In this document: positions 2,908-20,905 of the stretch, in pieces
How positions within the stretch are numbered: the first letter of the stretch is position 1
Layout: each line of letters starts with the position of its first letter
Source of the DNA: Deltaproteobacteria bacterium
GTDB taxonomy: Bacteria > Myxococcota > Kuafuiibacteriia > Kuafuiibacteriales > Kuafuiibacteriaceae
Direction of reading: 5' to 3'
Assembly (NCBI GenBank): GCA_040218735.1
Contig: JAVJQW010000005.1
Span: 1-48,338, forward strand
Length of the DNA: 48,338 bases
Translations under genes and position numbers: made by a program
The notes under the pieces: generated by a model
Told to the model about the DNA's origin: nothing
What the model saw: only the letters and a program-made list of their open reading frames with translations
Database searches by the model: none

Positions 2908-5316
2908 TTGAAAAAGACGCTGTGGGTGTGTGTTCTGGGGCTGGCGGCGTGCGCGCCCGACAAGATTGGGGCTCCGTCCCCCGACGAGCCCGGCGGGTCA
3001 TCGCCCCAAGGCCTCGCGGCGCCGATCGTGTCCAGCCCGTCCGACGGCGCGCGGATCGTCAGCCCGGCGTCGATCCGCGGTCGCGGCGCGCCCGGCGCGA
3101 TGGTCGTCGCCGTGCTCAGCGCCGATGACTTCGCGCTCGGCGAGGCCTTCGCGCGCGTCGACGCCGAGGGGGCGTTCTCCCTCTCGCTCACCTTCGATCC
3201 GGCCCCCGAGGGCGCCGCGGTGGTCCTCTCGGTGTCCCAGACCAACGGCTCCGAGACGTCGCCGCCCGCGCTCGTCACCGTGCAGGTCGACACGGCGCCA
3301 GCGGCGCCCATGATCCTCGCCCCGGCCGCGGACGCCGACGTCGCGAGCCCAGTCCGCGTCGAGGGTCGGGGACAGGCCGGCGCGACCGCCGTCGCGGTGG
3401 TGTCCGCGGGGGACGACGAGCTCGGCCGCGCGGAGGCGGTCGTCGACGCCCTGGGGTCGTTTCAGGTGAGCGTCGCCTACGCGGGCGCCGAGTCCGGTGA
3501 CGCGTTGATGCTCTCCGTTCACCTGAGGAGCGGCGCCGCGACGAGCCCGGTCGTGAAACGCGGCATCATGCACCGTCCGCGTCGACTCTCGGGGACCGTC
3601 GCGCAGCCGCTCGGTCCGTTCGACGGGACCCAGGTCTACGTCCGGCTCTACGAGTCCTCCGACGCCGTCGTCGATCCGCTGCTGGAGGTGCAGCTGACCG
3701 TCGCCGAGGATCGACCGCTCGAGGCGACCCCGTTCAGCTTCGACGTCGCCGACGGTCGCTACTTCATCCGCGCCTACCGCGACGCGCGCGGCCCGTGGGG
3801 CGGGCAGGCCGACGGGCACCCGACGATCCCGTACGACCCGCAGTCCACGATGAGCATCCCCGTGCAGGTCTCGGGCGACGACAACGACGGCGTCTCGCTC
3901 GTGCTCGCCGCGCCGGTCGTCGCGCAGGAACACTACGAGGGCTTCGACGTGCTCACGATGCACGAGTCCCATCACCCGCAGCCCCCAGGGGCCTACGACG
4001 AACAGCGCGAAGAGTGGGTCGAGGGGCCGGGACTCTGCCGCGGCTATTACCTCGCGATGCGCGTGCAGCGCAGGAGCGAAGTCGCGACGAGCGCGCCCCG
4101 CGTGCGTGCGCCCGACGGCACGATCGTCGAGCTCGCGGACGACGGCGGTTGCGGTGACGGCAACGACAACACCGCGTCGAGCTACGACGATCGACGCGGC
4201 GACGGGACGTACACGTTCGGCGTCCCGGAGCCGGCGGCGTCGCTCGCGGGTGCGTACACCTTCTTCTACCGCGACGAAGTCGAAGACCTGATCCACGAGT
4301 CCGTCGACATGGTCGCCTCGATTCGACAGCTCAGTCGCATGGTGATGCTCGAGGCCCCGACCGGCGCCGAGGCGGCGTCCACGATGCCGACCTACCGCTG
4401 GGCCGAGGTCCGCGGCGCCGTCGCGTACGCGCTGCGCGTCGACGGGGCGAACGGCGACAACTACGTCTCCGCGCTGACGACCAGCGCGATGTTCACCGCG
4501 AGCGCGCCGCTCCCGGACGATCGGGCCTACCGCGCCACGCTCGAGATCTACGACGCGAACCCGCTGGAGGGCGGCGACATCGACGCGAGCGCACGCTCGA
4601 TGACGAGCTTCTTCATCACCGACGAGGACGCCGACAGCACCGTCGTGATCTCCGGGACGATCGTGAACGAGACCGGTCGCACCGGCGCCGTCGGTATCTA
4701 CGTGGACGGCGACGAGTCTGTTGAGGCGAGCCTGCGCGTCCCCGCGGGGACCAGCAGCTACGCAATTCGCGCCTTCGCGCGCCCGAACGTCCGCGTGATG
4801 GCGTTCCTCGACGTGGAGGGCGCCGGCGAGCCCGAGCGCGCCGACGGTTACGTGATCGAGGTCGAGGTCGACGCGACCACCGACGCGACGGCGGACCTCG
4901 TGTTCCGCGCGCCGGTCGAGCTCACCAGCCCGGCCGACGGCGCCCGCGGCGTGGGCGCCACGCCGCGCCTCGAGTGGAACGGCTACGGCGACCACGCACC
5001 GGCCACGTGGTCCTACGCGGTCTACGTGTCGAACGGCGACGGCGACTTCCCGCAGGTCGTCTACGGGCTGCCGCCCAGCGCGACGTCGTTCGACTTCGCG
5101 ATGAGCGCGGCGTCGCAGGACGCGTTCGACATCGTGAACCTCGCGACCGGCTCCGCCAGCGCGTCGAACCTCAGCGGCGCGGAGGGGTGGGCGTGGGGTC
5201 TCGTGGTGATCGAGTGCGACCACGCAGCGAACGACTACGGCGCGTGTTTGATGGAGGTGCTCGGCGACGACGGCGCCTTCTACGCGCAGTCCCCCGAGTG
5301 GCGGTTCTCACCCTGA
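2908..5316 (+). CDS. large surface lipoprotein with repeated Ig/FN3-like beta domains and a choice-of-anchor-X-like DDG..GDG.Y motif
   Basis: Probable TTG start at 2908 with GGAGG at 2895-2899 (ORF opens at 2881); lipobox LAA-C; duplicated AP.I..P.DGA...SP..V.GRG..GA modules; LADDGG...DDRRGDGTYT. Confidence 0.75.
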   Translation: MKKTLWVCVLGLAACAPDKIGAPSPDEPGGSSPQGLAAPIVSSPSDGARIVSPASIRGRGAPGAMVVAVLSADDFALGEAFARVDAEGAFSLSLTFDPAPEGAAVVLSVSQTNGSETSPPALVTVQVDTAPAAPMILAPAADADVASPVRVEGRGQAGATAVAVVSAGDDELGRAEAVVDALGSFQVSVAYAGAESGDALMLSVHLRSGAATSPVVKRGIMHRPRRLSGTVAQPLGPFDGTQVYVRLYESSDAVVDPLLEVQLTVAEDRPLEATPFSFDVADGRYFIRAYRDARGPWGGQADGHPTIPYDPQSTMSIPVQVSGDDNDGVSLVLAAPVVAQEHYEGFDVLTMHESHHPQPPGAYDEQREEWVEGPGLCRGYYLAMRVQRRSEVATSAPRVRAPDGTIVELADDGGCGDGNDNTASSYDDRRGDGTYTFGVPEPAASLAGAYTFFYRDEVEDLIHESVDMVASIRQLSRMVMLEAPTGAEAASTMPTYRWAEVRGAVAYALRVDGANGDNYVSALTTSAMFTASAPLPDDRAYRATLEIYDANPLEGGDIDASARSMTSFFITDEDADSTVVISGTIVNETGRTGAVGIYVDGDESVEASLRVPAGTSSYAIRAFARPNVRVMAFLDVEGAGEPERADGYVIEVEVDATTDATADLVFRAPVELTSPADGARGVGATPRLEWNGYGDHAPATWSYAVYVSNGDGDFPQVVYGLPPSATSFDFAMSAASQDAFDIVNLATGSASASNLSGAEGWAWGLVVIECDHAANDYGACLMEVLGDDGAFYAQSPEWRFSP

Positions 5317-6954
5317 CGCTTTTTTGTCGCGGCGCATCTCGATGACGCGCTTTTCCATCCGCGCCTCCCGCAGGTGCGGGTGGAGCGCGAGCGCCTTGTC
5401 GTAGTTGGAGATCGCCTCGTTCAGGTCGCCTTTGTCGCGGTGCAGGCGGCCCAGATAGTAGTGCCACTGGCCGATCAGGATCGGGTCCTTCGGGCCGTCC
5501 TTCCGCGCCTTCTCGATCGCCGCTTCCAAGAGCTGCTTGCCCTTGCTGAGCGCGGTGGCGCGATCGAAGTGGCGATCCATGATCATCGACCACGCATAGA
5601 ACGCCGCGTACTGCGGGTTCGTCGCATCGAGGGTGTGCGCCCGTTCGAGGAGCTCGCGCGCTTCGGGCGCGGCGCCCTTGCGGAGGTGGACCTTCGCCAT
5701 CTCGAACGCCATCAGCGCGTCCTGCTCGTCCTTCTTCGCATCGCGCGCCGGCTTCGGCTCGGTCTGCTGCAAGTACGCCGCACGGGCCGCCGGGTGGTTG
5801 AGTGTTCGGTACGCCTCGTTGAGCGCGGCTTGGAGCTGATCGGCGATCGCGAGCACTTCGGGCGTCGCCGTCGCGCGCAGCGTGTCGGGGTGGAAGCGCC
5901 GCGCCCGGTCGAAGAACGCCTTCGAGATCGTCTCGGCGTCGGCGTTCTTCGCCACGCCCAGCAACGCGAAGTGGTCCGGCTTCTTCGGTAGCGCCGCGAA
6001 CGCGAGGAGCTCTTGCACGACCGCGTCCGTCGCCGGTGCGGGGTTCGCGGGGGGCGCGGTCGCCTGAGCTTCCTGGCCCTGCACCCACGCCTGGTACGCG
6101 GCACGAAGCTCCTCGTTGAACGGGTCGAGATCCTGCGCCGACAGCGCGAGCTTTCCGCACTGCTCCGGCGAGATGCGCGACAACTCCATCGCCTGCTGCA
6201 CGAGCGCCTTCGCGCGCTCGACCTTCTCCGGGAACGCCTGCGTCCACACCTCGCGCAGGTACGTGAAGTCTTCGCCGGCCGCGCGACGTTCGTCGATGCG
6301 CAGGTGGCTGTGGTGGAAGTCGTAGTGGAGTCGGCGCAGCGGGTTCGCGACGAGCTCACTCGCGCGTTCAAGCTGACGCACCACCTGCTCGAGGCGCGCG
6401 ACCTTCGGGGGCGGGCTGTCGGGCGGCGCGTCCGAGAACCGCTCGCACATCGTCTGCACGCGAAGCTCGATCGCGTCGCGCGTCGCGCCGGGCTCGACGT
6501 CGAGCGCCGCGTAGAGCTTCGAAGCGGAGAGCGCATCCATGATGCGCTTCGCGTCCGCGATCAGGACGTCGAGCGGCTCGTACTCCCGCTCGACCCCGAG
6601 GTCCGCGGAGAGCCGTGCCGCGACGCCGTCGACGTACTCTTCGATGCGCGTCTTGCTGTCGTCGTCGAGGCTGACGAACTGCACGCCGATCCCCGGCGGC
6701 TGGTTGAACGCGGCGGCGGACTCCGTCGAGACGACGTGCACGACCTCGGCGTCGAGCTCGAGCATCCCGTCCGGCGTCGACAGGTGGATGGTGAGCTGCG
6801 TCCCGAACGCCGGCGGCGTCTCGGTGCGGATGAACATCCCGCCCTTCGAGATGTCGACGGTCCACGCTTCCTTGAGTGCTTCGCGAGAGCCGAAGCCGAC
6901 CTCGACCTTTCGTTCGTCGATGAAGCGTGGGTGCTGGCGGACGGTGCTCGACAC
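5308..6954 (-). CDS. PilZ (TIGR02266-type) + degenerate J-like domain + J domain + TPR protein
   Basis: RQHPR and DISKGG PilZ motifs, GIGVQF; DHFALLGV...RFHPD J domain; C-terminal TPRs (HYYLGRLH..KGD..EAI..YDKAL.L.P). Confidence 0.85.
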   Translation of the reverse strand: MSSTVRQHPRFIDERKVEVGFGSREALKEAWTVDISKGGMFIRTETPPAFGTQLTIHLSTPDGMLELDAEVVHVVSTESAAAFNQPPGIGVQFVSLDDDSKTRIEEYVDGVAARLSADLGVEREYEPLDVLIADAKRIMDALSASKLYAALDVEPGATRDAIELRVQTMCERFSDAPPDSPPPKVARLEQVVRQLERASELVANPLRRLHYDFHHSHLRIDERRAAGEDFTYLREVWTQAFPEKVERAKALVQQAMELSRISPEQCGKLALSAQDLDPFNEELRAAYQAWVQGQEAQATAPPANPAPATDAVVQELLAFAALPKKPDHFALLGVAKNADAETISKAFFDRARRFHPDTLRATATPEVLAIADQLQAALNEAYRTLNHPAARAAYLQQTEPKPARDAKKDEQDALMAFEMAKVHLRKGAAPEARELLERAHTLDATNPQYAAFYAWSMIMDRHFDRATALSKGKQLLEAAIEKARKDGPKDPILIGQWHYYLGRLHRDKGDLNEAISNYDKALALHPHLREARMEKRVIEMRRDKKASG

Positions 6955-6998
6955 GCTTCGACGATCATGCCCGGACTCGGACCTGACGTCGAACCGCC

Positions 6999-7514
6999 TC
7001 AGTCCTCGGTGGCAGAGGGTGGGATGCGCGCGCCGTCGGGGAGCGTCGCGTCCGGGTCGAGCACCGGGGCGGCGTCGAGGTCGTCGCCGTCCATCATCTC
7101 GACGATGCGTTCGAGGCTGCTCTTGATGCGATGCTGCTCATCCGGCTGGAGCCGCTGGAGCCGGTCCACGAAGCGCTCCTGGAGCGGCGAGGGCGCCTGT
7201 TCGATCAGCGCACGTCCTGCGTCGGTGAGCCGTACCGTGACCCGGCGGCGGTCCTTGCTCGTGCGTTCACGTGTCACGAGCTGCCTCGCGGCGAGGCGAT
7301 CGATGATGCCGGTCATCGTCGCCTGGCTGAGCGAGACCTCGCGGGCGATCTCACTCGGCGCCGCCTCCTCGAGCTGGCCAATCGTGCGCAGCGCGACGAG
7401 CTGCGGACCGGTGAGGCCGAAGGTGCTCGCCAGGTGTTTGCTGTGGAGATCGATCGCCCGGCTGATCCGCCGCAGCGACCGCAGGATGTCGTCCTCGATC
7501 GACGCCAACGTCAC
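6999..7514 (-). CDS. MarR-family repressor, EctR/CosR-like
   Basis: GTG start overlaps the symporter stop (GTGA); ILRSLRRISRAIDLHSKHL...GLTGPQL...SLSQATMTGIIDRL...DRRRV.V.LT..G......APSPLQERF is the EctR/CosR-type MarR pattern. Confidence 0.85.
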   Translation of the reverse strand: MTLASIEDDILRSLRRISRAIDLHSKHLASTFGLTGPQLVALRTIGQLEEAAPSEIAREVSLSQATMTGIIDRLAARQLVTRERTSKDRRRVTVRLTDAGRALIEQAPSPLQERFVDRLQRLQPDEQHRIKSSLERIVEMMDGDDLDAAPVLDPDATLPDGARIPPSATED

Positions 7515-9349
7515 GGAGTGTCGCACGACTCGACCCTGTCGGCACGCGGTCGTCGCGCGCCCCACGCGAGCGCGGCGGCACCGGCCGCGAGGAGCACGAC
7601 GGTGACGAGGTCCGTGGTGTCGAAGATGAGCCGCTTCAGGCCGAACAGCGCCGCGACCACGCCGCCCGTGACGCCGACCCACCGGAGCGCGACCTCGGAG
7701 AGCTGCGCGAATGCGGTCGCCGCCGTCCGGTCGGGCCAGAACCCGAGCGGACGAACGCGCGCGATGAACCGCGCGAGCGCCTCGTCGTTCTGCGCCGGAC
7801 GCACGACGAGCCCGATGACCAGGCCGACCAGGCTCGACGCGGAGATGATCACGAGGCGTAGCTCGTAGGTGACGTCGAGCGTCAGCGCCGCGACCGCCAA
7901 CCCGACGCCCATCGCGAGCAGCTCCGCGAGCGCGGTGACGCGCCACCACACCCAGCGCAGCGCGGTGGGGATCCCGAGCGCGGCGCCGAGCGCGGCGACC
8001 CACTTCCAGGCTTCTTCGATCGTGTCGATGTGCAGGCTCACCACCGCGGCGACGATCGCGAACACCAGCACCGCGGACCGCGCGACGAGCAGCTGCACGC
8101 GGGTCGACACGTCGGGGCGCGCGACGCACAGGACGTCGTTCACCACGTACGATGCGCCCCAGTTGATGTGGGTGTCGACGGTGCTCATGAACGCGGCGAG
8201 GAGGCTGGTGACCATCAGCCCGAGCGCGACCGGGGGGAGGAGCGCGACCATGAGCACGGGGTAGGCGAGCTCGCGGTCGTCGGCGACGGGTGCGGCGAGG
8301 CCGTCGAGCGCGGAGGTTTCGCCGCCGATCGGGACGAGCACGAGCGCCGAGACCGCGACGACGAACCACGGCACCGCGCGCACGAGGTAGTGGACGACGA
8401 CGAACAACACCGAGGCGCGGCGCGCGTCGTCCTCGCTGCGCGTGGCGTTGAGGCGCTGCATCATGTAGCCGCCGCCGTCCGCGGGGACGTTGGTGTACGA
8501 CTGCACGAACAGGTACGCGCCGAAGAGGAACGCGCCGAAACCGAGGCCGTCGACCCACGTGACATCCAAGCTCGGGATGAAGGTGATGAAGTCCTGCTCG
8601 GCGCCGTAGAGCTGGGTGAGCTTCTCGCTGATGCGCGCGCGCCCGCCGGCGCGCGTCCACGCGGCGACCGCGAGCCAGATGCTCCCGAACATCGCGACGC
8701 CGAGCTGGATGAGGTCCGTGAAGACCACACCGCGGATGCCGCCGACGCTGGAGTAGAAGCCGACGATCGCGAGGAGCGAGAGGATCGTCAAACCTTCCGA
8801 CGGTGTCCCGAGCGCGGCGCCGTCCGGCCACACCACAGCGAACGCGGCGACGAACGCCGGCGTCCAGACGTCCCAGTGAAAGAAGGGCGTCACGATCTTC
8901 ACCATCGCGCGCAGCACCCATCCGAGGATGATCGCGTTGTAGACCAGGCCGAACAGCACCGAGCGCGACGCGCGCAACACGCCGGCGGCGCGCCCCGAGT
9001 AGCGCAGTGCGACGAGCTCGGCGTCGGTGAGCACGCCGCTGCGACTCCAGCGCGCGGCGAAGTACACGACCACGGCGGCGTGCACGCCGATCCACGACAG
9101 CCACATCCAGTTCCCGGAGAGGCCGCGGCTCGCGACGATGCCGGTGACGGCGAGGGGGGTGTCGGCGGCGAAGGTGGTCGCGGCGATGGACAGGCCGGCC
9201 CACCACCAGGGGAGGGTGCGCCCCGCGAGGAAGTAGCTGGTGCGATCTTCGGACGCCGCCTTGCGGACGAAGAGCCCGACGCACGCGGCCATCACGAGGT
9301 AGACGCCGACGACGACCCAGTCGACGGTGTGGAGCGTCAGCCGGTCCAC
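7511..9349 (-). CDS. sodium:solute symporter (SSS family)
   Basis: YFLAGRTLPWW..GLSIAATTFAADTPLAVTG, GGIRGVVFTDLIQ, LLAAFMST; about 13-15 hydrophobic segments. Confidence 0.92.
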   Translation of the reverse strand: MDRLTLHTVDWVVVGVYLVMAACVGLFVRKAASEDRTSYFLAGRTLPWWWAGLSIAATTFAADTPLAVTGIVASRGLSGNWMWLSWIGVHAAVVVYFAARWSRSGVLTDAELVALRYSGRAAGVLRASRSVLFGLVYNAIILGWVLRAMVKIVTPFFHWDVWTPAFVAAFAVVWPDGAALGTPSEGLTILSLLAIVGFYSSVGGIRGVVFTDLIQLGVAMFGSIWLAVAAWTRAGGRARISEKLTQLYGAEQDFITFIPSLDVTWVDGLGFGAFLFGAYLFVQSYTNVPADGGGYMMQRLNATRSEDDARRASVLFVVVHYLVRAVPWFVVAVSALVLVPIGGETSALDGLAAPVADDRELAYPVLMVALLPPVALGLMVTSLLAAFMSTVDTHINWGASYVVNDVLCVARPDVSTRVQLLVARSAVLVFAIVAAVVSLHIDTIEEAWKWVAALGAALGIPTALRWVWWRVTALAELLAMGVGLAVAALTLDVTYELRLVIISASSLVGLVIGLVVRPAQNDEALARFIARVRPLGFWPDRTAATAFAQLSEVALRWVGVTGGVVAALFGLKRLIFDTTDLVTVVLLAAGAAALAWGARRPRADRVESCDTP

Positions 9350-9361
9350 TTCAGGTCCACG

Positions 9362-10399
9362 TCAGGTGTACGTCACCTTGTTGAGCCCGGCGGGTTGGTC
9401 CGGGTTGATGCCGCGCCGGCCCGCGAGCTCGAGCGCGACGAGCTGCGACAGGAACGCGAGCACCACGGAGCGCGCCCAGCGCACGGTGGGCATCGGGATC
9501 GCGAGCGCGCGCTGCGCCAACGCTTCGGCGCGGTCGCCGCGGTGGGAGGCTTCGCCGGTCACGGTGAGGTGGGGCGCGCCGCGCGCGAGGAGGCGGGTGG
9601 AGACGGCGTCGAGGCTATCAGCGGGTTCGTCGCCGTCCTGGAAGAGGACGACGCGGTCCGTGCTGTCGAGCGCGCCGATCGGACCGTGGAGGATCTCCGC
9701 GGCCGACCACGCCTGGCACTTGAGCCCGATCGACTCCTGCAGCTTCAACGCTGCGTCCTGCGCCGCGGCGAGCGCGGGGCCGCGCGCGACCCACACCACG
9801 GCTTTGCCGCCTTCGATGAAGTCGGCGAGGCGGACCACCGCGTCGCTCTCGAGGATCAGCTCCATGGCCACCGCTGTCTCGTCCGCGGCGGGCTGCAGCT
9901 TGAGGTCGCAGAGCGCCGCGGTGACGAACAGCTGCGCGCCGAAGCTCTTCGTGGCGGGCACCGCGAGCTCGTCGCCGACCCCCACGTCGACCATCGCGTC
10001 GCAGACCCGGCCGAGGTTGCTGTCGGGCGTCGCGCCGTTCGTGACGGCGAGGATGCGTGCGCCGCGCTCCTTCAACCACTGCGCGGAGTGGGCGATGTCC
10101 GTGCTCTGACCCGACGCGGAGTAGGCGAACACCCGCGCGTCCTCCCATCGGGCGTCGGCGGAGCGTTGGGTCGACAGCCACGGCCGGAACTCGATCGGGT
10201 GGCGGCCGCTGTTCACGCCCGCAAGGTAGGTTGCGAACGTGCACGCGTTTCCGGAGCTGCCGCGTCCGACGAGCACGAGGTTGTCGCGTGCTCCGACCCG
10301 CTGAAGGGCTTCATGGGCGTCACGCGTCCAGGTGTCGGCTTTGGAGCGGAGCAAGTACGGTTGTTCGACGGTCTCGTCGCGCATGTGGCAGGCGATCAT
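9362..10399 (-). CDS. double-SIS-domain protein, glucosamine-6-phosphate deaminase (NagB-II/GlmS isomerase-like)
   Basis: ATG at 10399 overlaps the upstream stop; GRGSS, SASGQSTD, E.AVPATKSF, ARG...AALKLQE, SAAEILHGP, NPDQP.GLNKVT; no glutaminase domain. Confidence 0.85.
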   Translation of the reverse strand: MIACHMRDETVEQPYLLRSKADTWTRDAHEALQRVGARDNLVLVGRGSSGNACTFATYLAGVNSGRHPIEFRPWLSTQRSADARWEDARVFAYSASGQSTDIAHSAQWLKERGARILAVTNGATPDSNLGRVCDAMVDVGVGDELAVPATKSFGAQLFVTAALCDLKLQPAADETAVAMELILESDAVVRLADFIEGGKAVVWVARGPALAAAQDAALKLQESIGLKCQAWSAAEILHGPIGALDSTDRVVLFQDGDEPADSLDAVSTRLLARGAPHLTVTGEASHRGDRAEALAQRALAIPMPTVRWARSVVLAFLSQLVALELAGRRGINPDQPAGLNKVTYT

Positions 10400-11229
10400 C
10401 GGGGGCCTCCTCTTTCGGGCGGGGTGACGTGAGGGCGCGCGCGCCAGTAGAACTCGGCCGGCGAGCCCTTCCACGTGACGTTGGCGAGCTGAGGTTCGAG
10501 GGAGCGGTCCGGGCCGAAGAACAGCGACAGCTGGGTCGCGTAGTGTTTGACGAGTCGGACTTTGGTCGCGACGTCGGTGTGGACCGCGAGGCGCGCGGAC
10601 GGCCGGCACCCGATGCGTTCGAGCGCGCGGGTGGGATCGTCGGGCTCGCCGCCGCCGAACTCGTGGTCGAAGACGTACGGGACGTCCTCGTAGAAGAGCA
10701 GGTTGTTGGGGCTCGCGACCTGCAAGGCGACTTGCGCGCAGATGGCGTGGTCGACGTGCAGCCCGATGCCCATCGGCGCCAGCACGAGCACTCGACCCAT
10801 GTTCTGGACGAGGCGGCGGAGGACGAGGAACAGCTCCTCGACGTACGCGCTGTCGTCGGGCGCACAGAGCGCGAACTTCGTGCGTGAGCGTCGGTAGATC
10901 AGGTCGCCGGTGGTCGGGCTGCGTCGGTAGATGCAGTCCGCGAAGCCGAGGTGCACGAAGTCGCAGTCGAGGTCGTGCATCGCGCGGATGTCCTCGCGGC
11001 GGCGCGCGAGGGGCGATGCGAACCCGCGACGGTGGCGACCGCTCCCGTTGTTGTTGCGCGGCACTGGGTTGCCGCACGCGATGGTGACGACGAGGCGCGA
11101 GACCTTGCCCTTCAACGCGGTGAGGAGCCCGGCGGTGGACAGGACAGCGTCGTCGAGGTGCGGCGAAAGCGCGATGACGCGCTCGAACTTGTCCCAGTCG
11201 TACGCGGCGAGGAGGTCGATCGTCTTCAT
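10396..11229 (-). CDS. PIG-L/LmbE-family Zn-dependent de-N-acetylase
   Basis: SPHLDDAVLS, RRRED, HVDH and YEDVPY motifs. Confidence 0.9.
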   Translation of the reverse strand: MKTIDLLAAYDWDKFERVIALSPHLDDAVLSTAGLLTALKGKVSRLVVTIACGNPVPRNNNGSGRHRRGFASPLARRREDIRAMHDLDCDFVHLGFADCIYRRSPTTGDLIYRRSRTKFALCAPDDSAYVEELFLVLRRLVQNMGRVLVLAPMGIGLHVDHAICAQVALQVASPNNLLFYEDVPYVFDHEFGGGEPDDPTRALERIGCRPSARLAVHTDVATKVRLVKHYATQLSLFFGPDRSLEPQLANVTWKGSPAEFYWRARPHVTPPERGGPR

Positions 11230-12500
11230 GCGAACATCGGGATCTGGGCGCCGTAGCGGCGCTTCGCGAGCTCCATCATCGTGCGCGCCTTCGCGGTCGA
11301 CTCGACGAGCGGGTTGTCGGCGAGCGCGGCCGTGGCGGCCTCGACGTCGTGACCAACGGCGGCCTCCGCGGCGCGTCGTTGGTAACGTTCGAGGCGGAGC
11401 AAGAGCGGCATCTGATCGGGCGCGACGGGCGGCGCCGACGTGCGCAAGATCTCTTGCTTCGAGACCGAGCAGACCGATTCGACGACCGTCGTCGGATCGA
11501 AGATCGGCGCTGCGCCCTGACCGGCGACGTTGAGCACCATCCGCTGCGGGGTGTCGGATCCGAGCGCGCGCAGCATCAGCACCGCCATGTCGCCGAAGCC
11601 GCTGCTGCCGCGGTGGTGTGTCAGGACAGGGACGTCGCGGCGGGCCTCCTCCTCGAAGTGGGCGAAATACGTCGGCAGCTTCGCGAGGATGGCTTCGGCG
11701 CGCGAGCCGGCCTTCAGCGCGTGGGCGACGAACACGTCCGGCCGCGCGTAGAACGCGAGGTACGAGTTCGGGAAGTAGCCGGGATGCGATCGCGCGAGCT
11801 CGAGCGAGATCTCGAATCGCAGCCGGTACGCGCCGTCGAGGTGCGCGGGGACCTCGATCGTGTCGATCGCGGGGAGCGGCGCGCCATCGATTCGGACGTC
11901 GTGGTACCAGGTCGCGTGGTTGAGGCCGACGCAGTCGAAGCGTGCTTCGCCGTCGCGTCCGAGCGCGAGCGCGAGGTCGTGCATGTCTTCGTCGGACTGG
12001 TCGCAGAGGCCGATGACCCGCACGCCGCGACCGAGGAGCGCCTGCGTCACGATGTTCGTCGGGTTGGTGTAGTTCAGGAGCACCGCCTCGGGGGCGAGGC
12101 GTTTCAGGCGGTCGACGATCGCGATCGACGCCGGGACGGACCGCAGCGCGAAGAAGAACCCACCGGGGCCGACGGTCTCCTGGCCGGGGATTTCGACCTC
12201 CAACGGGATCGTCTCGTCGTGGTGCCGACAGGTGAGTCCACCCGGACGTGACGTGTTGAGGACGGCGTCGGTCCCTGTGAGCGCTTCGTCGAGATCGTCG
12301 TAGGCGCGCACCGTGAACGGCGCGCCCTGCGTGTTCGCCATCTTCGCGCCGAGGCGCGACACGACGTCGAGGTTCTTGGCGTCGATGTCGAAGAGGCGCA
12401 CCTCACGTAGCTCGAGCTCGCGGCAGTGGTGGAGGAGCGCGGCGAGCAGCCCGGGCGTGTACGCGCTGCCGCCGCCGACGACGGTGAAGGTTCGAATCAT
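11226..12500 (-). CDS. glycoside hydrolase family 4 (6-phospho-beta-glucosidase/ChbF-like)
   Basis: ATG at 12500; VGGGSAYTP, GQETVGPGG, NYTNP, GLCD, GLNH and NPLV are the GH4 NAD+/Mn2+ motifs. Confidence 0.92.
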   Translation of the reverse strand: MIRTFTVVGGGSAYTPGLLAALLHHCRELELREVRLFDIDAKNLDVVSRLGAKMANTQGAPFTVRAYDDLDEALTGTDAVLNTSRPGGLTCRHHDETIPLEVEIPGQETVGPGGFFFALRSVPASIAIVDRLKRLAPEAVLLNYTNPTNIVTQALLGRGVRVIGLCDQSDEDMHDLALALGRDGEARFDCVGLNHATWYHDVRIDGAPLPAIDTIEVPAHLDGAYRLRFEISLELARSHPGYFPNSYLAFYARPDVFVAHALKAGSRAEAILAKLPTYFAHFEEEARRDVPVLTHHRGSSGFGDMAVLMLRALGSDTPQRMVLNVAGQGAAPIFDPTTVVESVCSVSKQEILRTSAPPVAPDQMPLLLRLERYQRRAAEAAVGHDVEAATAALADNPLVESTAKARTMMELAKRRYGAQIPMFA

Positions 12501-13360
12501 GACTGCTCCAACAGATCGGCGAAGACGTCGGCGCGACGCGCGACGCCACCGGTGACCATGAGTTGACGCGCCGCAACCTCGGTTGCGAGGCGGCCCGCGG
12601 CTTCGCCGCTGCGTCCGGCGAGCCGACCCGCGACGAACCCCGCCGCGAACGCGTCGCCCGCGCCGGTGTGGTCCGCGACCGCGACCTCGTGCGCGGGCAC
12701 CGCGAAGCGAACGTCGTCCACGCGGCCCACCGCGCCGCGGTCGTCGAGGGTGACGATCAGGTCGCGGACGTTCGTGAGACCGGAGAGCGCGCCGTCGACC
12801 GAGCCGGCCGCAGTGCGCGCTTCGGCTTCGTTGAGGAACAACAGGTCCCACGGCGGCGAGTCCGCCGCGAGGGACGCGAGGCGGTTGGGGGCCCAGCTCC
12901 CGCTCACGCTGACCGTGGCGCCCGCGGCGCGCGCCCGGGCGAGCAGCGGCTCGAGCGCGCGTGCTTCTTCCAGCCCGGGCACGTGGATGTGCTGCGCGTC
13001 GGGGAGGGCGGGGCACTCGGCGAGGCTCGCGAAGTGCGCCGCGGTGACGAACGCGCGGTCTTCGGGGAACGCGAGGACGAGCGAGATCGCCGGGTCGTCC
13101 GGCGCTCGCCAGGTGTGCGCGTCGAGGTCGAGCGCTTCGGTCGCGCGCTGGATTGCGTGGTCGGCGATGCCCATGCCGGCGGGGTAGGCGAGGGTGACGT
13201 CCTGCCCGAGCGCGCGCAGGACGGACGCGGTGTTGATCGCTCCGCCGAAGCCGAGCGTCATCGAACGCACGAAGCGCTCGCGGCCGGGCTCGACCGCGAA
13301 GTCATCGCCGCCGACGTTCACCTCGAAGAACACGAGGCCGGCGACCACGATTCGGCTCAC
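12497..13360 (-). CDS. PfkB/ribokinase-family carbohydrate kinase
   Basis: GTG start overlaps the ggpS stop; FGGAINTA, LFLNEAEA and DHTGAGDAFAAGF signatures. Confidence 0.9.
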   Translation of the reverse strand: MSRIVVAGLVFFEVNVGGDDFAVEPGRERFVRSMTLGFGGAINTASVLRALGQDVTLAYPAGMGIADHAIQRATEALDLDAHTWRAPDDPAISLVLAFPEDRAFVTAAHFASLAECPALPDAQHIHVPGLEEARALEPLLARARAAGATVSVSGSWAPNRLASLAADSPPWDLLFLNEAEARTAAGSVDGALSGLTNVRDLIVTLDDRGAVGRVDDVRFAVPAHEVAVADHTGAGDAFAAGFVAGRLAGRSGEAAGRLATEVAARQLMVTGGVARRADVFADLLEQS

Positions 13361-15618
13361 GCGTTGGCTCCTTCGAGCCCTTCCAGGAAGCCGTCGCCCC
13401 AGCGGCGCACGTCGTTGTACTCGACGATCTGCTGCATCCGTCGCTGGCGCTGCCCGCGTTCGTCGTCGGACATGGTGAGTGCGTGCATCAGCGCGTTCTT
13501 CATGCTGCTGAGGTCGAACGGGTTCGCGAGGAGCGCGCCGTGCATCTCGACCGCGGCACCGGCGAACTCGGAGAGCACGAGCGCGCCCTTTGTGTTCGTC
13601 GCGGCCTTGGCCATCACGTACTCCTTGGCGACGAGGTTCAGCCCGTCGCGCAGCGGCGTGATCCACGCGACGTCACTCGCCGCGTAGTGCGCGACGACGT
13701 CCTCGAACGGGAGCGACCGCAGGAAGTAACGCACCGGCGTCCAGTCCATGCGGCCGAAGCGGCCGTTGAGCTGACCGACGGCCTGATCGAGTTTGTCGTT
13801 GAGGGTCTTGTAGATCCGCATCCCGGACGCGGGGGGCGTGACGAAGTTGATCAGCACGACCTTGCCGTGGAGCTCGGGGTGCTCCTCGAGGAGCTGGCCG
13901 AACGCTTCGATCTTCTCGAGCGGGCCTTTGACGTAGTCGAGCCGCTCGATCGAGACGATCGCCGTCCGGCCCTCCAGCTCGCCGCGTATCTGCTCGATGC
14001 GCTGCGCGACGTCGTCGCGGGCGACGAGCTCGCGGATGCGTTGGCAGTCGATGCCGACCGGGTGCGCGCCGAGGTGGACCCGGCGTCCGCCGACGTCGAT
14101 CGCCGTGGCCATCTGATCGATGCCGAGCGCGCAGCCGTAGGTGACGAAGCGCGGCGCACACGGCACGCGGTCGACGACCTGCGTCGGAGCGTTCGACTGG
14201 AGGACGTCGACGAAGTTTTCGAGGTAGCGCGGGATGTGGAAGCCGACGTAGTCACACTGCGCGAGGCTGCCGACGATGTGCTCGCGCCACGGGAGCATGT
14301 TGAACACGTCCGACGGCGGGAACGACGTGTGGTGGAAGAAGCCGATCTTCACGTCGGCGCGGAGCTGCCGGAGCATCCCCGGCACCAGCCACAGGTTGTA
14401 GTCGTGGACCCAGACGAGGGCGTTGGGTTTGGCTTCTTCGGCGGTCCGCTCGGCGAAGGCGCGGTTGACGTCGACGAAGGTCTCCCACATCGACGCGTCG
14501 AACACGGCGCGGCCCGGGAACGAGAAGATCACCGGCCAGAACGCCTCCTTCGAGAAACGTTTGTAGAAGCGGTCGACGTCGTCCTTGGTGAGGGCGATGC
14601 GCGCCGCTTCGAGGCCGGCGTACTCGTCCGCGACGGGCACGGTGCGTTCGAAGTCGTCCGGGTCGCGGGAGTCCTGGAGTGACCAGCCGACCCACGCGCC
14701 CGCGCGGCCGTTCGCGAAGAAGCCGAGGAGCGACGGGATGATTCCGTTGGGGCTCTTCGGCCGGCGGCGGAACGTCTTGCCGTTGCGTCGGTACTCCTCG
14801 AACGGGAGGCGGTGGTAGACCATCACCAGCTGGCTCTGGGCGCCTTCGAGATCGAGCGTCGGCGTGCGCGGCTGCGGGTCGACCCAGCCGTGTTTCGTCA
14901 GCGCCTCTTCGATGCCCGCCGCGCCGACGCCATCGGCGACGTGGACGGTGTCGCGCCGCGCGACGTGATCGACGAGCGCGGGCTCCGCGTTGTGAACGAC
15001 GACGCCGAGCAGCCCGGTGTCGAACATCGAGCGGTCGTTGAGCGTGTCGCCGGCGACGAGGACGCGCTTCGGATCCAGGCCGAGGTGATCGACGAGCGCG
15101 AGGAGCGTCGGTCCCTTCGACACCCCCTTCGGCATCACGTCGAGGTAGCGGCCGGCCGAGAGGATCAGGTCACAGCCGAGCGCCTCGACGGTGGCGTTCA
15201 GCTCGGGGGTCACTGCGGCGTCGGACGTATAGAGATAGGAGCACCGGCGCTCCTGCGGGACGTCCTGTCGGACGAGCCCTTCGAAGCGCGCGAGGCGATC
15301 GATCACCTCGAGTGTGCCGGGCCACCGCGCTTCGATGTTCGCCTGGAGCGGCTGGACAGGGACGAAGCGTTCGTCCACGACCTCCACGATCGTCGCGCCG
15401 ACGTCGGCGATGACGTACTTCGGCTTCGGGACGAGCGGATCCCAGAACAGCGGACGGACGGTTTCGAGGCCGCGACCCGTAACGAAGATGGTGAGCGCCC
15501 CGTCGAGGGTGTCGAGCAGGCTCTGGCGTTCTTCGTCCGACCCTCCGAGGAGGGTGCCGTCGAGATCGGTGGCGAGGACGAAGGGGGGCGCGGGGGTCAG
15601 GGCAGCGGGGACGCTCAC
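13357..15618 (-). CDS. ggpS: glucosylglycerol-phosphate synthase fused to an N-terminal HAD phosphatase (GgpPS-type)
   Basis: HAD motifs LATDLDGT, KG, GDTLND; GT20 motifs WVHDYNLWLVP, ERLDYVKG, LRDGLNLVAKEY, LSEFAGAA; GgpS-typical YHRLP...PKSPNGIIPSLLGFF. Confidence 0.9.
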   Translation of the reverse strand: MSVPAALTPAPPFVLATDLDGTLLGGSDEERQSLLDTLDGALTIFVTGRGLETVRPLFWDPLVPKPKYVIADVGATIVEVVDERFVPVQPLQANIEARWPGTLEVIDRLARFEGLVRQDVPQERRCSYLYTSDAAVTPELNATVEALGCDLILSAGRYLDVMPKGVSKGPTLLALVDHLGLDPKRVLVAGDTLNDRSMFDTGLLGVVVHNAEPALVDHVARRDTVHVADGVGAAGIEEALTKHGWVDPQPRTPTLDLEGAQSQLVMVYHRLPFEEYRRNGKTFRRRPKSPNGIIPSLLGFFANGRAGAWVGWSLQDSRDPDDFERTVPVADEYAGLEAARIALTKDDVDRFYKRFSKEAFWPVIFSFPGRAVFDASMWETFVDVNRAFAERTAEEAKPNALVWVHDYNLWLVPGMLRQLRADVKIGFFHHTSFPPSDVFNMLPWREHIVGSLAQCDYVGFHIPRYLENFVDVLQSNAPTQVVDRVPCAPRFVTYGCALGIDQMATAIDVGGRRVHLGAHPVGIDCQRIRELVARDDVAQRIEQIRGELEGRTAIVSIERLDYVKGPLEKIEAFGQLLEEHPELHGKVVLINFVTPPASGMRIYKTLNDKLDQAVGQLNGRFGRMDWTPVRYFLRSLPFEDVVAHYAASDVAWITPLRDGLNLVAKEYVMAKAATNTKGALVLSEFAGAAVEMHGALLANPFDLSSMKNALMHALTMSDDERGQRQRRMQQIVEYNDVRRWGDGFLEGLEGANA

Positions 15619-15869
15619 AGCGGGCGGGCCGTGATGCGCCAGAAGGACGCGCCTTCGTCGAAGCCGACCCGGTTGATGAACCGGACATACCCGGCGTCCT
15701 CCAGGCGCTTCAGCCAGTTGGCGGCGCGGTCGGCGTTCGGGACGAGCCGGGCGATCGCCTGCTCCAGGCGTTGCTTACCGGCGATGTAACCCGACGAATT
15801 CGTTGGTCCTTCCTTGTCGATGAGTGCCTCGGCGAGGTGGTCGAGCCGTGGCGGAGCCTTGAAAGTCAT
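15615..15869 (-). CDS. small hypothetical protein (84 aa), possibly winged-helix-like; first gene of the ggpS operon
   Basis: ATG start; stop overlaps the ggpS GTG; ends WLKRLEDAGYVRF...FWRI (helix followed by beta hairpin). Confidence 0.65.
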   Translation of the reverse strand: MTFKAPPRLDHLAEALIDKEGPTNSSGYIAGKQRLEQAIARLVPNADRAANWLKRLEDAGYVRFINRVGFDEGASFWRITARPL

Positions 15870-15925
15870 AGGCTCGTTTATAACTCATATGTTTTGAGGA
15901 CTAAAGGTTTGAGTAGAATAAATGA
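15870..15925 (-). promoter_or_regulatory. AT-rich promoter/operator region of the ggpS operon with a TTTGA-GG-ACTAA pseudo-palindrome and a second TTTGA-GT-AGAAT box
   Basis: Sharp AT-rich island in GC-rich DNA; boxes at 15893-15904 and 15908-15919; resembles EctR/CosR-type operators as I recall them. Confidence 0.6.
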
Positions 15926-17854: not shown

Positions 17855-19801
<1,947 letters not shown>

Positions 19802-19807
19802 TTCTCC

Positions 19808-20905
19808 TCATCCAAACTCGATCCCGAGGTGCCGCGCCGACTCCACGAGCGGTCCGTTCGGATCCACCCGCTTCATTCCGGACGCCGCCTCCTCGATCGC
19901 GACACCTTCGATCACGCTGCCCTTCAACGCGACCATTTGCCCCCAGCGCCCTTCTTCGACGAACGTCATCGCCGCCGTTCCGAAGCGCGTCGCGAGCACC
20001 CTATCGTAACCGGAAGGGCGCCCACCTCGCAGCAAATGTCCGAGCACTGTGACGCGCGTCTCTAGACCGCTGGCCTCCGCGATGGCCTCGGCCGCGAGCG
20101 CCCCCGCGCCTCCGAGCCGGGGCATCCCGCCCGCCGCCTGCTTGTCGAGGTAGGCCTGGGCCCCGCCGATCGGGAGGGCCCCCTCGGCGACCACGACGAT
20201 CGAGAAGAAGCGCCCCGCGGCCTGGCGCCGGCGGACTTTGTCGCAAACCTTCGAAATGTCGTAGGGAATCTCGGGGATGAGGATGACGTCGGCGCCGCTC
20301 CCGATCCCCGCGTAGGCGGCAATCCAGCCGCAGTCGCGCCCCATGACCTCCGCGATCATCACGCGGTCGTGCGACTCGGCGGTCGAATGGAGGCGGTCGA
20401 TGGCGTCCGTGGCGACCTCGACGGCGGTGTTGAAGCCGAAGGTCACGTCGGTCGCGGCGATGTCGTTGTCGATGGTCTTCGGGACCCCGACGACCTTGAT
20501 CCCCTTCTCGACCATCAGCCGGTGCGCGATCCGCATCGTCCCGTCGCCCCCGATGACGATGAGGCCTTCCAGCTCGAGGATCCGCATCGCCTCCACCAGC
20601 CGATCCGAACGATCCTCGAAGCAGAACGATCCATCCGACTGCTTCACCGGAAACTCGAAGGGATCCCCACGGTTGGTCGTCCCGAGGATCGTCCCGCCCC
20701 GCCGCAGGATGCCGCGCACCGCGTCGCGGTTGAGCTCGTGCACGTCGTAGGGCGTGCTCATCAGCCCATTGAAGGCGTCGGCGACGCCGAGCACCTCCCA
20801 ACCCATGTCACTCACGCCGGTCTTCACGACCGCGCGAATGACCGCGTTCAGCCCGGGGCAGTCGCCCCCGCCGGTGAGGACTCCGACCCGCTTCTTCTTC
20901 GGCAT
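19808..20905 (-). CDS. pfkA: 6-phosphofructokinase, probably ATP-dependent
   Basis: LTGGGDCPGLNAVIR, GGTILGT, GGDGT (Gly at the ATP/PPi discriminating position), PKTIDND, EVMGR, LGH.LRGG. Confidence 0.95.
   Translation of the reverse strand: MPKKKRVGVLTGGGDCPGLNAVIRAVVKTGVSDMGWEVLGVADAFNGLMSTPYDVHELNRDAVRGILRRGGTILGTTNRGDPFEFPVKQSDGSFCFEDRSDRLVEAMRILELEGLIVIGGDGTMRIAHRLMVEKGIKVVGVPKTIDNDIAATDVTFGFNTAVEVATDAIDRLHSTAESHDRVMIAEVMGRDCGWIAAYAGIGSGADVILIPEIPYDISKVCDKVRRRQAAGRFFSIVVVAEGALPIGGAQAYLDKQAAGGMPRLGGAGALAAEAIAEASGLETRVTVLGHLLRGGRPSGYDRVLATRFGTAAMTFVEEGRWGQMVALKGSVIEGVAIEEAASGMKRVDPNGPLVESARHLGIEFG

Follow-up and report, generated by a model that had tools for sequence, protein, structure and literature searches.

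A myxobacterial operon that joins a GgpPS-type synthase to a PfkB kinase, a GH4 glycosidase and a PIG-L deacetylase is a candidate system for making and recycling an alpha-glycosyl-glycerol solute

INTRODUCTION

What is the substrate of an operon that encodes a PfkB-family kinase, a GH4 glycosidase, a PIG-L de-N-acetylase, a double-SIS protein and a transporter? The locus lies in a 48,338-nucleotide stretch of DNA, hereafter the window, from a Deltaproteobacteria bacterium (Myxococcota, Kuafuiibacteriaceae; GenBank assembly GCA_040218735.1, contig JAVJQW010000005.1). A first-pass annotation placed five genes (SSS, SIS, PIG-L, GH4 and PfkB) at 7511-13360 on the minus strand and read them as an analogue of the Escherichia coli chitobiose pathway that does without the phosphotransferase system (PTS). 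Pfam searches confirmed all five families. The genes in that region were correct, but its bounds cut off the operon at both ends, omitting a GgpPS-type synthase upstream and a MarR-family regulator downstream. Comparisons of the operon with related loci suggest that, on balance, it serves osmoadaptation by making an alpha-glycosyl-glycerol compatible solute and recycling it in an ATP-dependent manner. More tentatively, the sugar of this solute may be N-acetylglucosamine (GlcNAc) rather than, or besides, glucose.

RESULTS

The operon, all on the minus strand, begins with a gene for a 753-amino-acid fused HAD-IIB phosphatase/GT20 protein of the GgpPS type (13357-15618; PF05116, PF00982 and TIGR02398). 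Next come genes for a 287-amino-acid PfkB-family kinase (12497-13360; PF00294), a predicted glycoside 6-kinase; a 424-amino-acid GH4 NAD+- and metal-dependent glycosidase (11226-12500; PF02056 and PF11975), a predicted 6-phospho-alpha-glycosidase; a 277-amino-acid PIG-L/LmbE-family de-N-acetylase (10396-11229; PF02585); and a 345-amino-acid double-SIS protein of the GlmS-isomerase/NagB-II type (9362-10399; PF01380 in two stretches), predicted to be a glucosamine-6-phosphate (GlcN-6-P) deaminase. A 612-amino-acid sodium:solute transporter of the SSS symporter family (7511-9349; PF00474, 95.9 bits, and TIGR00813) and a 171-amino-acid MarR-family regulator (6999-7514; PF01047, 54 bits) complete the row. 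Adjacent genes overlap by 4 nucleotides throughout, the MarR start overlapping the SSS stop, except for a spacing of 12 nucleotides between SIS and SSS. Genes in the window (70% G+C) were called from third-position GC and start-codon context, and families were assigned with Pfam.

A scan covering one genome per species found 194 relatives of the window GH4, 80 of which were kept. At 65 related loci, where the GH4 is 46 to 79% identical, gene presence was scored by tblastn with the window proteins. PfkB was found at 59 of these loci, adjacent to the GH4, PIG-L at 53, SIS at 46, GgpPS at 38, SSS at 11, MarR at 4 and phosphofructokinase (PFK) at 1. Absence despite enough flanking sequence was seen for PfkB at 1 locus, for PIG-L at 4 and for SIS at 9, at least five of them in Oxalobacteraceae. 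The gene arrangement is not due to chance. It occurs in Myxococcota, Burkholderiales (Rhodoferax, Massilia, Janthinobacterium and Polaromonas), a metagenome-assembled genome (MAG) of Lysobacterales, Acidobacteriota, Bdellovibrionota and Bradymonadales, and the loci most similar to that of the window are in Myxococcota/Polyangiales assemblies. The combination of kinase, deacetylase, GH4 and GlcN-6-P-deaminase-like protein that the first-pass annotation singled out therefore behaves as one conserved module; the chitobiose assigned to it as substrate fared less well, as described below. All five genomes of Oxalobacteraceae without an in-cluster SIS gene encode a similar SIS protein elsewhere, which fits a dispensable deaminase step. 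Transporters differ among loci (SSS, ABC or TRAP) while the enzymes persist.

Neighboring genes at the related loci point to osmoadaptation. An MscS mechanosensitive channel family (one member scanned) is a neighbor at 16 Burkholderiales loci, and further neighbors are an ABC ATPase with a weak, subthreshold CBS-domain match, TRAP transporters and sugar ABC transporters. No chitinase was found among the recurrent neighbor families scanned, hexosaminidases not having been specifically searched for. At locus L025, which has PfkB-GH4 without PIG-L, the neighbors were uninformative. One GgpPS-PfkB-GH4 cluster lies on a contig labeled "Patescibacteria group bacterium" (L061) and groups with Rhodoferax-type sequences in the tree; this contig is probably misbinned.

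The module is tied to GgpPS genome by genome. Five module genomes lack GgpPS in the locus itself; four of them hold a fused GgpPS elsewhere, while in the remaining one, a 2.6-Mb MAG, the sole GT20 is divergent. Among 301 Myxococcota genomes, those with this GH4 (E<=1e-90) and those with a GgpS above cut-off were the same five, with both genes on the same contigs; these five are members of one family and hence not independent. Genomes with the GH4 but no PIG-L had no GT20 at E<=1e-40 in 4 of 4 cases, and one such locus (L009) also lacked PfkB. The reverse does not hold. The GH4 is absent from five gammaproteobacterial GgpS genomes and, among 401 sampled Burkholderiales, from 7 of the 9 genomes that have a GgpS. 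No such GH4 was found at the chromid locus of D. shibae, whose chromosome was not searched. Because of this co-occurrence and these GH4-free GgpS genomes, the module seems to need GgpPS, whereas GgpPS does not seem to need the module.

The synthase consists of an N-terminal, sucrose-phosphatase-like HAD-IIB phosphatase (residues 12-242; PF05116, 151 bits) and a GT20 glycosyltransferase (residues 263-748; PF00982, 433 bits), an architecture known from the fused GgpPS of A. vinelandii and of S. rhizophila (PMC2671616). It scores 657.2 bits against the glucosylglycerol-phosphate synthase equivalog TIGR02398 (cut-off, 569). At the site of the WPxxH motif, F365 aligns with His90 of E. coli OtsA, so that the window GgpPS has Phe where OtsA/Tps1 and the other GgpS proteins examined have His. 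In fungal Tps1, O2' of the donor glucose binds a water molecule held by a His, which is H109 in A. fumigatus Tps1B (PMC5527307). The GgpS of D. shibae, encoded on a chromid and credited with alpha-glucosylglycerol synthesis (PMC9176285), and the GgpPS of M. salinexigens both carry His at this donor O2 site. Module-linked GT20 proteins (n = 44) have Phe in 41 cases, Asn in 3 and His in none, while the 14 module-free rows of the first set (6 GgpS and 8 OtsA-like, including E. coli) have His in 13 and Asn in 1. Phe was present in 119 of the best 120 homologues of the window GgpPS; His was present in 119 of the best 120 homologues of the Marinobacter-type GgpPS, a set that includes M. salinexigens, in which glucosylglycerol catabolism has been studied. 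No more than 16 alignment columns distinguish the two fused types. Holders of the Phe type are the window myxobacterium, Massilia, Janthinobacterium, Rhodoferax and some Acidobacteriota and Bdellovibrionota. Y465, considered as a second specificity site, was dropped, since Tyr also occurs in clade-A GgpS without the module. Outgroup row L100, whose genome is flagged as unpublished, carries no claim.

Two kinds of synthase loci outside the module were also seen. Four Burkholderiales loci (L118, L119, L120 and L121, from genomes G1009, G654, G990 and G761) have a module-free Phe-type GgpPS beside genes for MscS, NhaA or the MdoH-MdoG pair of osmoregulated periplasmic glucan synthesis; of these loci, L120 was not scanned and was likened to L119 only by the sizes of its open reading frames (ORFs). 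MscS, MdoH-MdoG and NhaA are osmoadaptation settings. At locus L105 (genome G093, 5868-9599), an MFS transporter precedes a His-type fused GgpPS, the same pairing as that of ycaD and ggpS, whose locus tags in S. rhizophila are reported as adjacent (PMC4101175 and PMC3653106).

The GH4 protein matches PF02056 with 137.1 bits (cut-off, 23.2) and PF11975 with 81.7 bits (cut-off, 24.1), scores far under the cut-offs of the NCBIfam GH4 models and belongs to a distinct, well-populated subfamily with the motif GLCDQS, in which C166-D167-Q168-S169 is invariant across 14 members. G9, G11, S12, C166, N194 and H195 are invariant in nine GH4 proteins, including ChbF and MelA; we take these residues to form the GGGS dinucleotide loop and the Cys/His metal ligands. 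Its full-length PDB matches are 6-phospho-glycosidases only (5c3m, 4e-50; GlvA 1u8x, 7e-39; 6vc6, 2e-34; 6dux, 4e-33), plus one chain labeled "cellulase IBT99" (6wbt), whereas nonphospho GH4 enzymes align only over residues 6-213, the NAD domain. This is in line with the earlier assignment of the protein to the phospho-glycosidase type. R85 and R92 are common to ChbF and replaced in MelA, the sole nonphospho comparator, a pattern that hints at a phosphorylated substrate.

The residue after the metal-binding Cys differs between alpha- and beta-type enzymes. Cys-Asp is found in all three solved 6-phospho-alpha-glucosidases (1u8x, CDMP; 6dux, CDMP; 6vc6, CDQP) and in the window GH4 (CDQS), while 6-phospho-beta enzymes (1s6y and 5c3m, CNVP) and E. 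coli ChbF (CNIP) have Cys-Asn. Asp at this motif marks alpha specificity. These motifs were read from PDB alignments, and a literature search gave no paper on the CDMP motif. The window GH4 is predicted from this signature to be a 6-phospho-alpha-glycosidase, and it is 28% identical to ChbF. The source genome encodes a second GH4 (contig C17, 35883-37118), 31% identical to the first, with the CNIP motif of the beta-type Cys-Asn enzymes. A search of plasmids returned no close GH4 (best, 34%, in Deinococcus) and no close GgpPS (best, 44%).

The deacetylase matches PF02585 with 40.7 bits (cut-off, 28.2) and is not of the YdjC family, in agreement with the proposal that a PIG-L protein takes the place of ChbG. 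In the PDB it is closest to Dbv21 (9.6e-21) and Orf2*, two GlcNAc deacetylases of the teicoplanin type, with which its intact PHLDD and HVDH motifs align; the His and Asp residues of these motifs presumably bind metal, as in other PIG-L proteins. The SIS protein matches the NagB-II-type structures 7kqa, 3fj1 and 8eol (3e-27 to 5e-21, with the C-terminal LNKVT covered). SGQSTD, AAEILHGP and LNKVTYT align with 7kqa and 3fj1 (two SIS domains, SxSG loop, AE..HGP and C-terminal Lys), and we assume that the SxSG phosphate loop, AE..HGP and the C-terminal Lys have the roles that they have in GlmS. Against the GlmD model NF041128 it scores 26.6 bits (cut-off, 580). The kinase matches PF00294 with 76.9 bits (cut-off, 25.8), and its translation contains GFGG, NEAE and TGAGD, presumably the functional GG, NxxE and GAGD motifs of PfkB proteins. 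Every NCBIfam match of the kinase is far under its cut-off and its best PDB match is a KDG kinase (3.5e-11); by these comparisons it is without a close characterized relative.

The five enzymes can be arranged in a cycle. The fused GgpPS, whose family is clear, would join a nucleotide sugar to glycerol-3-phosphate and then strip the phosphate. Once the solute is not needed, or is re-imported by the SSS transporter, PIG-L would remove the N-acetyl group, PfkB would phosphorylate O6 of the sugar, and the alpha-type GH4 would split the 6-phospho-glycoside into hexosamine-6-phosphate (or glucose-6-phosphate) and glycerol. The NagB-II-like SIS protein would then turn GlcN-6-P into fructose-6-phosphate and ammonia. 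MarR is the likely regulator of the operon. GlcNAc is proposed as the sugar because the deacetylase is near-constant, the deaminase is usual and the GgpPS partners lack the donor-site His; for plain glucosylglycerol, PfkB and GH4 would be enough. The source genome also appears to have no other NagA/NagB route, as neither NagA nor NagB-I was found in it above cut-off. Phe-type GgpPS proteins may thus be N-acetylglucosaminyl-glycerol-phosphate synthase/phosphatases, a possibility that we hold somewhat short of probable, and their product would be 2-O-(N-acetyl-alpha-D-glucosaminyl)glycerol, an undescribed solute with dedicated recycling by PIG-L, PfkB, GH4 and SIS.

Several observations weigh against GlcNAc as the sugar. 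To our knowledge, no GT20 enzyme uses UDP-GlcNAc. The equivalence of F365 and H109 of Tps1B was deduced by offset from alignments of relatives and not seen directly. Phe-type GgpPS also occurs without the GH4, in 4 of the 6 Phe-type genomes of the Burkholderiales sample, so the Phe may be a mere clade marker. Most Phe rows form one clade on the tree, and of the only 4 pairs available to an independent-pairs test, 3 agreed in direction, none was opposed and 1 was tied (p = 0.25). The SIS protein scores 114.5 bits against the NagB-II model NF046059 (cut-off, 430), and although this is still its best-scoring model, such a score places it in a subfamily separate from the NagB-II equivalog. Finally, the window GgpPS passes the glucosylglycerol-phosphate synthase cut-off, and the fused GgpPS proteins of A. 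vinelandii and S. rhizophila produce glucosylglycerol (PMC2671616), as does that of P. mendocina (locus tags AVAEIV_003468, DX03_04600 and MDS_3416, respectively; PMC10873239). The solute could therefore be ordinary 2-O-alpha-glucosylglycerol, with PfkB and GH4 as a third breakdown route beside GghA and GGP, in which a 6'-kinase and a 6-phospho-alpha-glucosidase would give glucose-6-phosphate and glycerol; PIG-L and SIS would then act on something else, be it a side substrate, a by-product of faulty synthesis or an amino-sugar glycoside imported along with the solute. The alpha-type GH4 suits this explanation, as do the module-free Phe-type synthases beside MscS, MdoGH or NhaA, where an ordinary osmolyte synthase would be expected, and glucosylglycerol catabolism in GgpPS heterotrophs without GGP is called "mysterious" (PMC10873239). 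However, PIG-L is then unexplained at 53 of 65 loci (it is absent despite room at 4), as is SIS, and both would be superfluous for plain glucosylglycerol. PfkB-GH4 without PIG-L, the set expected to suffice, occurs only in genomes without GgpPS (4 of 4), and this GH4 is found in 0 of the 7 His-type or clade-A GgpS genomes tested and not at the D. shibae chromid locus, the part of that genome searched. We regard this explanation as unlikely, although the case for an amino sugar is drawn from sequence.

Two other explanations are less probable still. The operon could be a self-contained, PTS-independent route that breaks down chitobiose, or a beta-linked GlcNAc disaccharide like it, after import, with GgpPS a mere neighbor, as the first-pass annotation in essence proposed. 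Its enzyme set does parallel the logic of the chb pathway, and an SSS transporter is present. The reported lack of PTS genes agrees with our search, which was limited to the EIIC family PF02378, without other EIIC families or Enzyme I, and gave 0 matches in the source genome but hits in 7 of 14 controls. PTS-free routes of this kind also exist, as in a Deinococcus cluster of GH4, NagB, BadF-type kinase and an oligopeptide/oligosaccharide-type binding protein. But the Cys-Asp motif of the GH4 is unlike the Cys-Asn of ChbF and 6-phospho-beta-glucosidases, and its identity to ChbF is low. GgpPS is the first gene of the operon, is translationally coupled to PfkB and tracks the module in both synteny and genome co-occurrence. 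The recurrent neighbors elsewhere are MscS channels and osmoprotectant-type transporters, with no chitinase among the families scanned, and the transporter family varies while the enzymes stay. These comparisons speak against chitobiose as the substrate of the module, and we consider this route very improbable; the enzyme logic behind it was reasonable and is partly supported. Alternatively, PIG-L could be biosynthetic and MshB-like, converting a GlcNAc-glycerol made by GgpPS into glucosaminyl-glycerol, as an end product or precursor, with PfkB, GH4 and SIS degrading it. Glycosyltransferase, phosphatase and PIG-L follow the order of the first mycothiol steps, most characterized PIG-L enzymes act on alpha-GlcNAc-polyols, and PIG-L is found only where GgpPS is present. 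A free amine is charged, though, which would be unusual in a compatible solute, and Pfam annotation of the window placed no ligase or other tailoring gene in the operon. This arrangement is improbable in our judgment, and degradative deacetylation of an N-acetylated solute is preferred to it.

The upstream neighbors of the operon that were scored are not conserved with it. An 84-amino-acid ORF (15615-15869, minus strand; third-position GC, 0.81, which is coding-like) has a stop that overlaps the GgpPS start (GTGA). It had no Pfam match at E<=1 and no tblastn match in the other loci, and its membership is uncertain; the operon comprises seven genes, perhaps eight with this ORF. In cyanobacteria, a small regulator gene, ggpR, reportedly overlaps ggpS. 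The upstream 2-hydroxyacid dehydrogenase and 317-amino-acid ORF each recur at 0 of 65 related loci. The gene pfkA (19808-20905; PF00365), which the first-pass annotation mentioned beside the pathway, recurs at 1 of 65, which speaks against a role in it. Flanking regulators are in ordinary myxobacterial style, namely, an FHA-GAF sigma-54 activator (147-1952), a PilZ-DnaJ-TPR protein (5308-6954) and a Ser/Thr kinase (17855-19801). A promoter and terminator scan was uninformative, with no promoter-like site and 4 terminator-like sites where 3.5 are expected. The source genome is 11.6 Mb and 96.5% complete. DNA near-identical to positions 7000-15900 (57 to 67% of sampled words) occurs, besides the likely source sample, in three runs from two studies labeled as sponge or aquaculture metagenomes, a hint of habitat only.

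A more distant set of 15 Chloroflexota loci (L068-L082; GH4, 37 to 42% identical) has kept only PfkB-GH4, with PfkB at 14 of 15. PfkB is about 30% and GH4 about 40% identical there, in a separate conserved cluster (e.g., L073, 971-11221). The other genes of that cluster encode a ROK regulator, a sugar ABC transporter, a 519-amino-acid protein that matches DUF3604 weakly and a sulfatase whose C-terminal domain is that of an N-sulphoglucosamine-sulphohydrolase. The pathway encoded there may act on a sulfated (amino)glycoside.

DISCUSSION

Osmolyte disposal in heterotrophs with fused GgpPS is described as unexplained outside Marinobacter (PMC10873239). The operon offers a concrete and widely conserved candidate for the disposal of glucosylglycerol-type solutes, by a kinase and a phospho-alpha-glycosidase. 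Moreover, some of the proteins named glucosylglycerol-phosphate synthase in databases may make a different, N-acetylated solute, as suggested by the GlcNAc-type deacetylase, the GlcN-6-P-deaminase-like protein and the His-to-Phe change in the synthase. If true, this would be a new osmolyte, the first GT20 enzyme to act on UDP-GlcNAc and the first glycoside 6-kinase of the PfkB family. In our literature search, no paper dealt with a kinase for glucosylglycerol, with breakdown of that compound through a GH4 or with bacterial use of glucosaminyl-glycerol as a solute; one of the terms turned up in an unrelated plant-extract paper. The cluster is present in cultured strains, among them Massilia eurypsychrophila JCM 30074, M. 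soli R798, M. agrisoli, M. glaciei and Janthinobacterium sp. CG3 (loci L038, L053, L047, L058 and L062), which makes a direct test possible.

Several known systems share parts of the proposed cycle. The chb pathway of E. coli likewise combines deacetylation, GH4 cleavage of a 6-phospho-glycoside and GlcN-6-P deamination. However, it uses a PTS (ChbBCA) where the window operon has a kinase, a YdjC-type ChbG where the operon has PIG-L and NagB-I where the operon has a SIS protein. Its GH4, ChbF, annotated as a monoacetylchitobiose-6-phosphate hydrolase, carries the Cys-Asn motif instead of the alpha signature, and only the window module is coupled to a biosynthetic GgpPS. A PTS-free logic of kinase, GH4 and deaminase has, by sequence, also been assembled from other families on a Deinococcus psychrotolerans plasmid (NZ_CP034185.1, 4859-10947), where genes for a LacI regulator, a family-5 binding protein, a GH4 (34% identical to that of the window; motif CEGP), NagB and a BadF/BadG-type kinase stand in a row. 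The chitin pathway of Thermococcus is a PTS-free chitobiose route with the PIG-L deacetylase Dac, GlmA, an ADP-dependent kinase and the SIS-type GlcN-6-P deaminase GlmD. It thus resembles the proposed cycle in lacking a PTS and in its deacetylase and deaminase families, but cleavage precedes phosphorylation there, by a GH35-type glucosaminidase acting on beta-linked chitobiose.

GlvA, MalH and AglB have the Cys-Asp motif and full-length similarity to the window GH4. These enzymes act on maltose, trehalulose and similar sugars phosphorylated by a PTS, whereas a PfkB kinase would supply the phosphate here. The early steps of mycothiol and bacillithiol synthesis (MshA, MshA2 and MshB; BshA and BshB) consist of glycosyl transfer onto a phospho-polyol, dephosphorylation and de-N-acetylation of an alpha-GlcNAc-polyol by a PIG-L enzyme. 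They differ from the operon in using a GT4 instead of a GT20 enzyme, and the operon lacks a cysteine ligase and has an osmoadaptation context. Parallels in gene order are ggpS-gghA of cyanobacteria and ggpPS-ggp of Marinobacter, in which the synthase adjoins the enzyme that degrades its product (PMC10873239). The window operon shares with them the placement of a synthase beside degradation genes, as well as the fused phosphatase-synthase architecture. At the donor site, His in the Marinobacter-type GgpPS contrasts with Phe in the window type, and a single hydrolase (GghA) or phosphorylase (GGP, GH13_18) does there what a four-enzyme, ATP-dependent route is proposed to do here.

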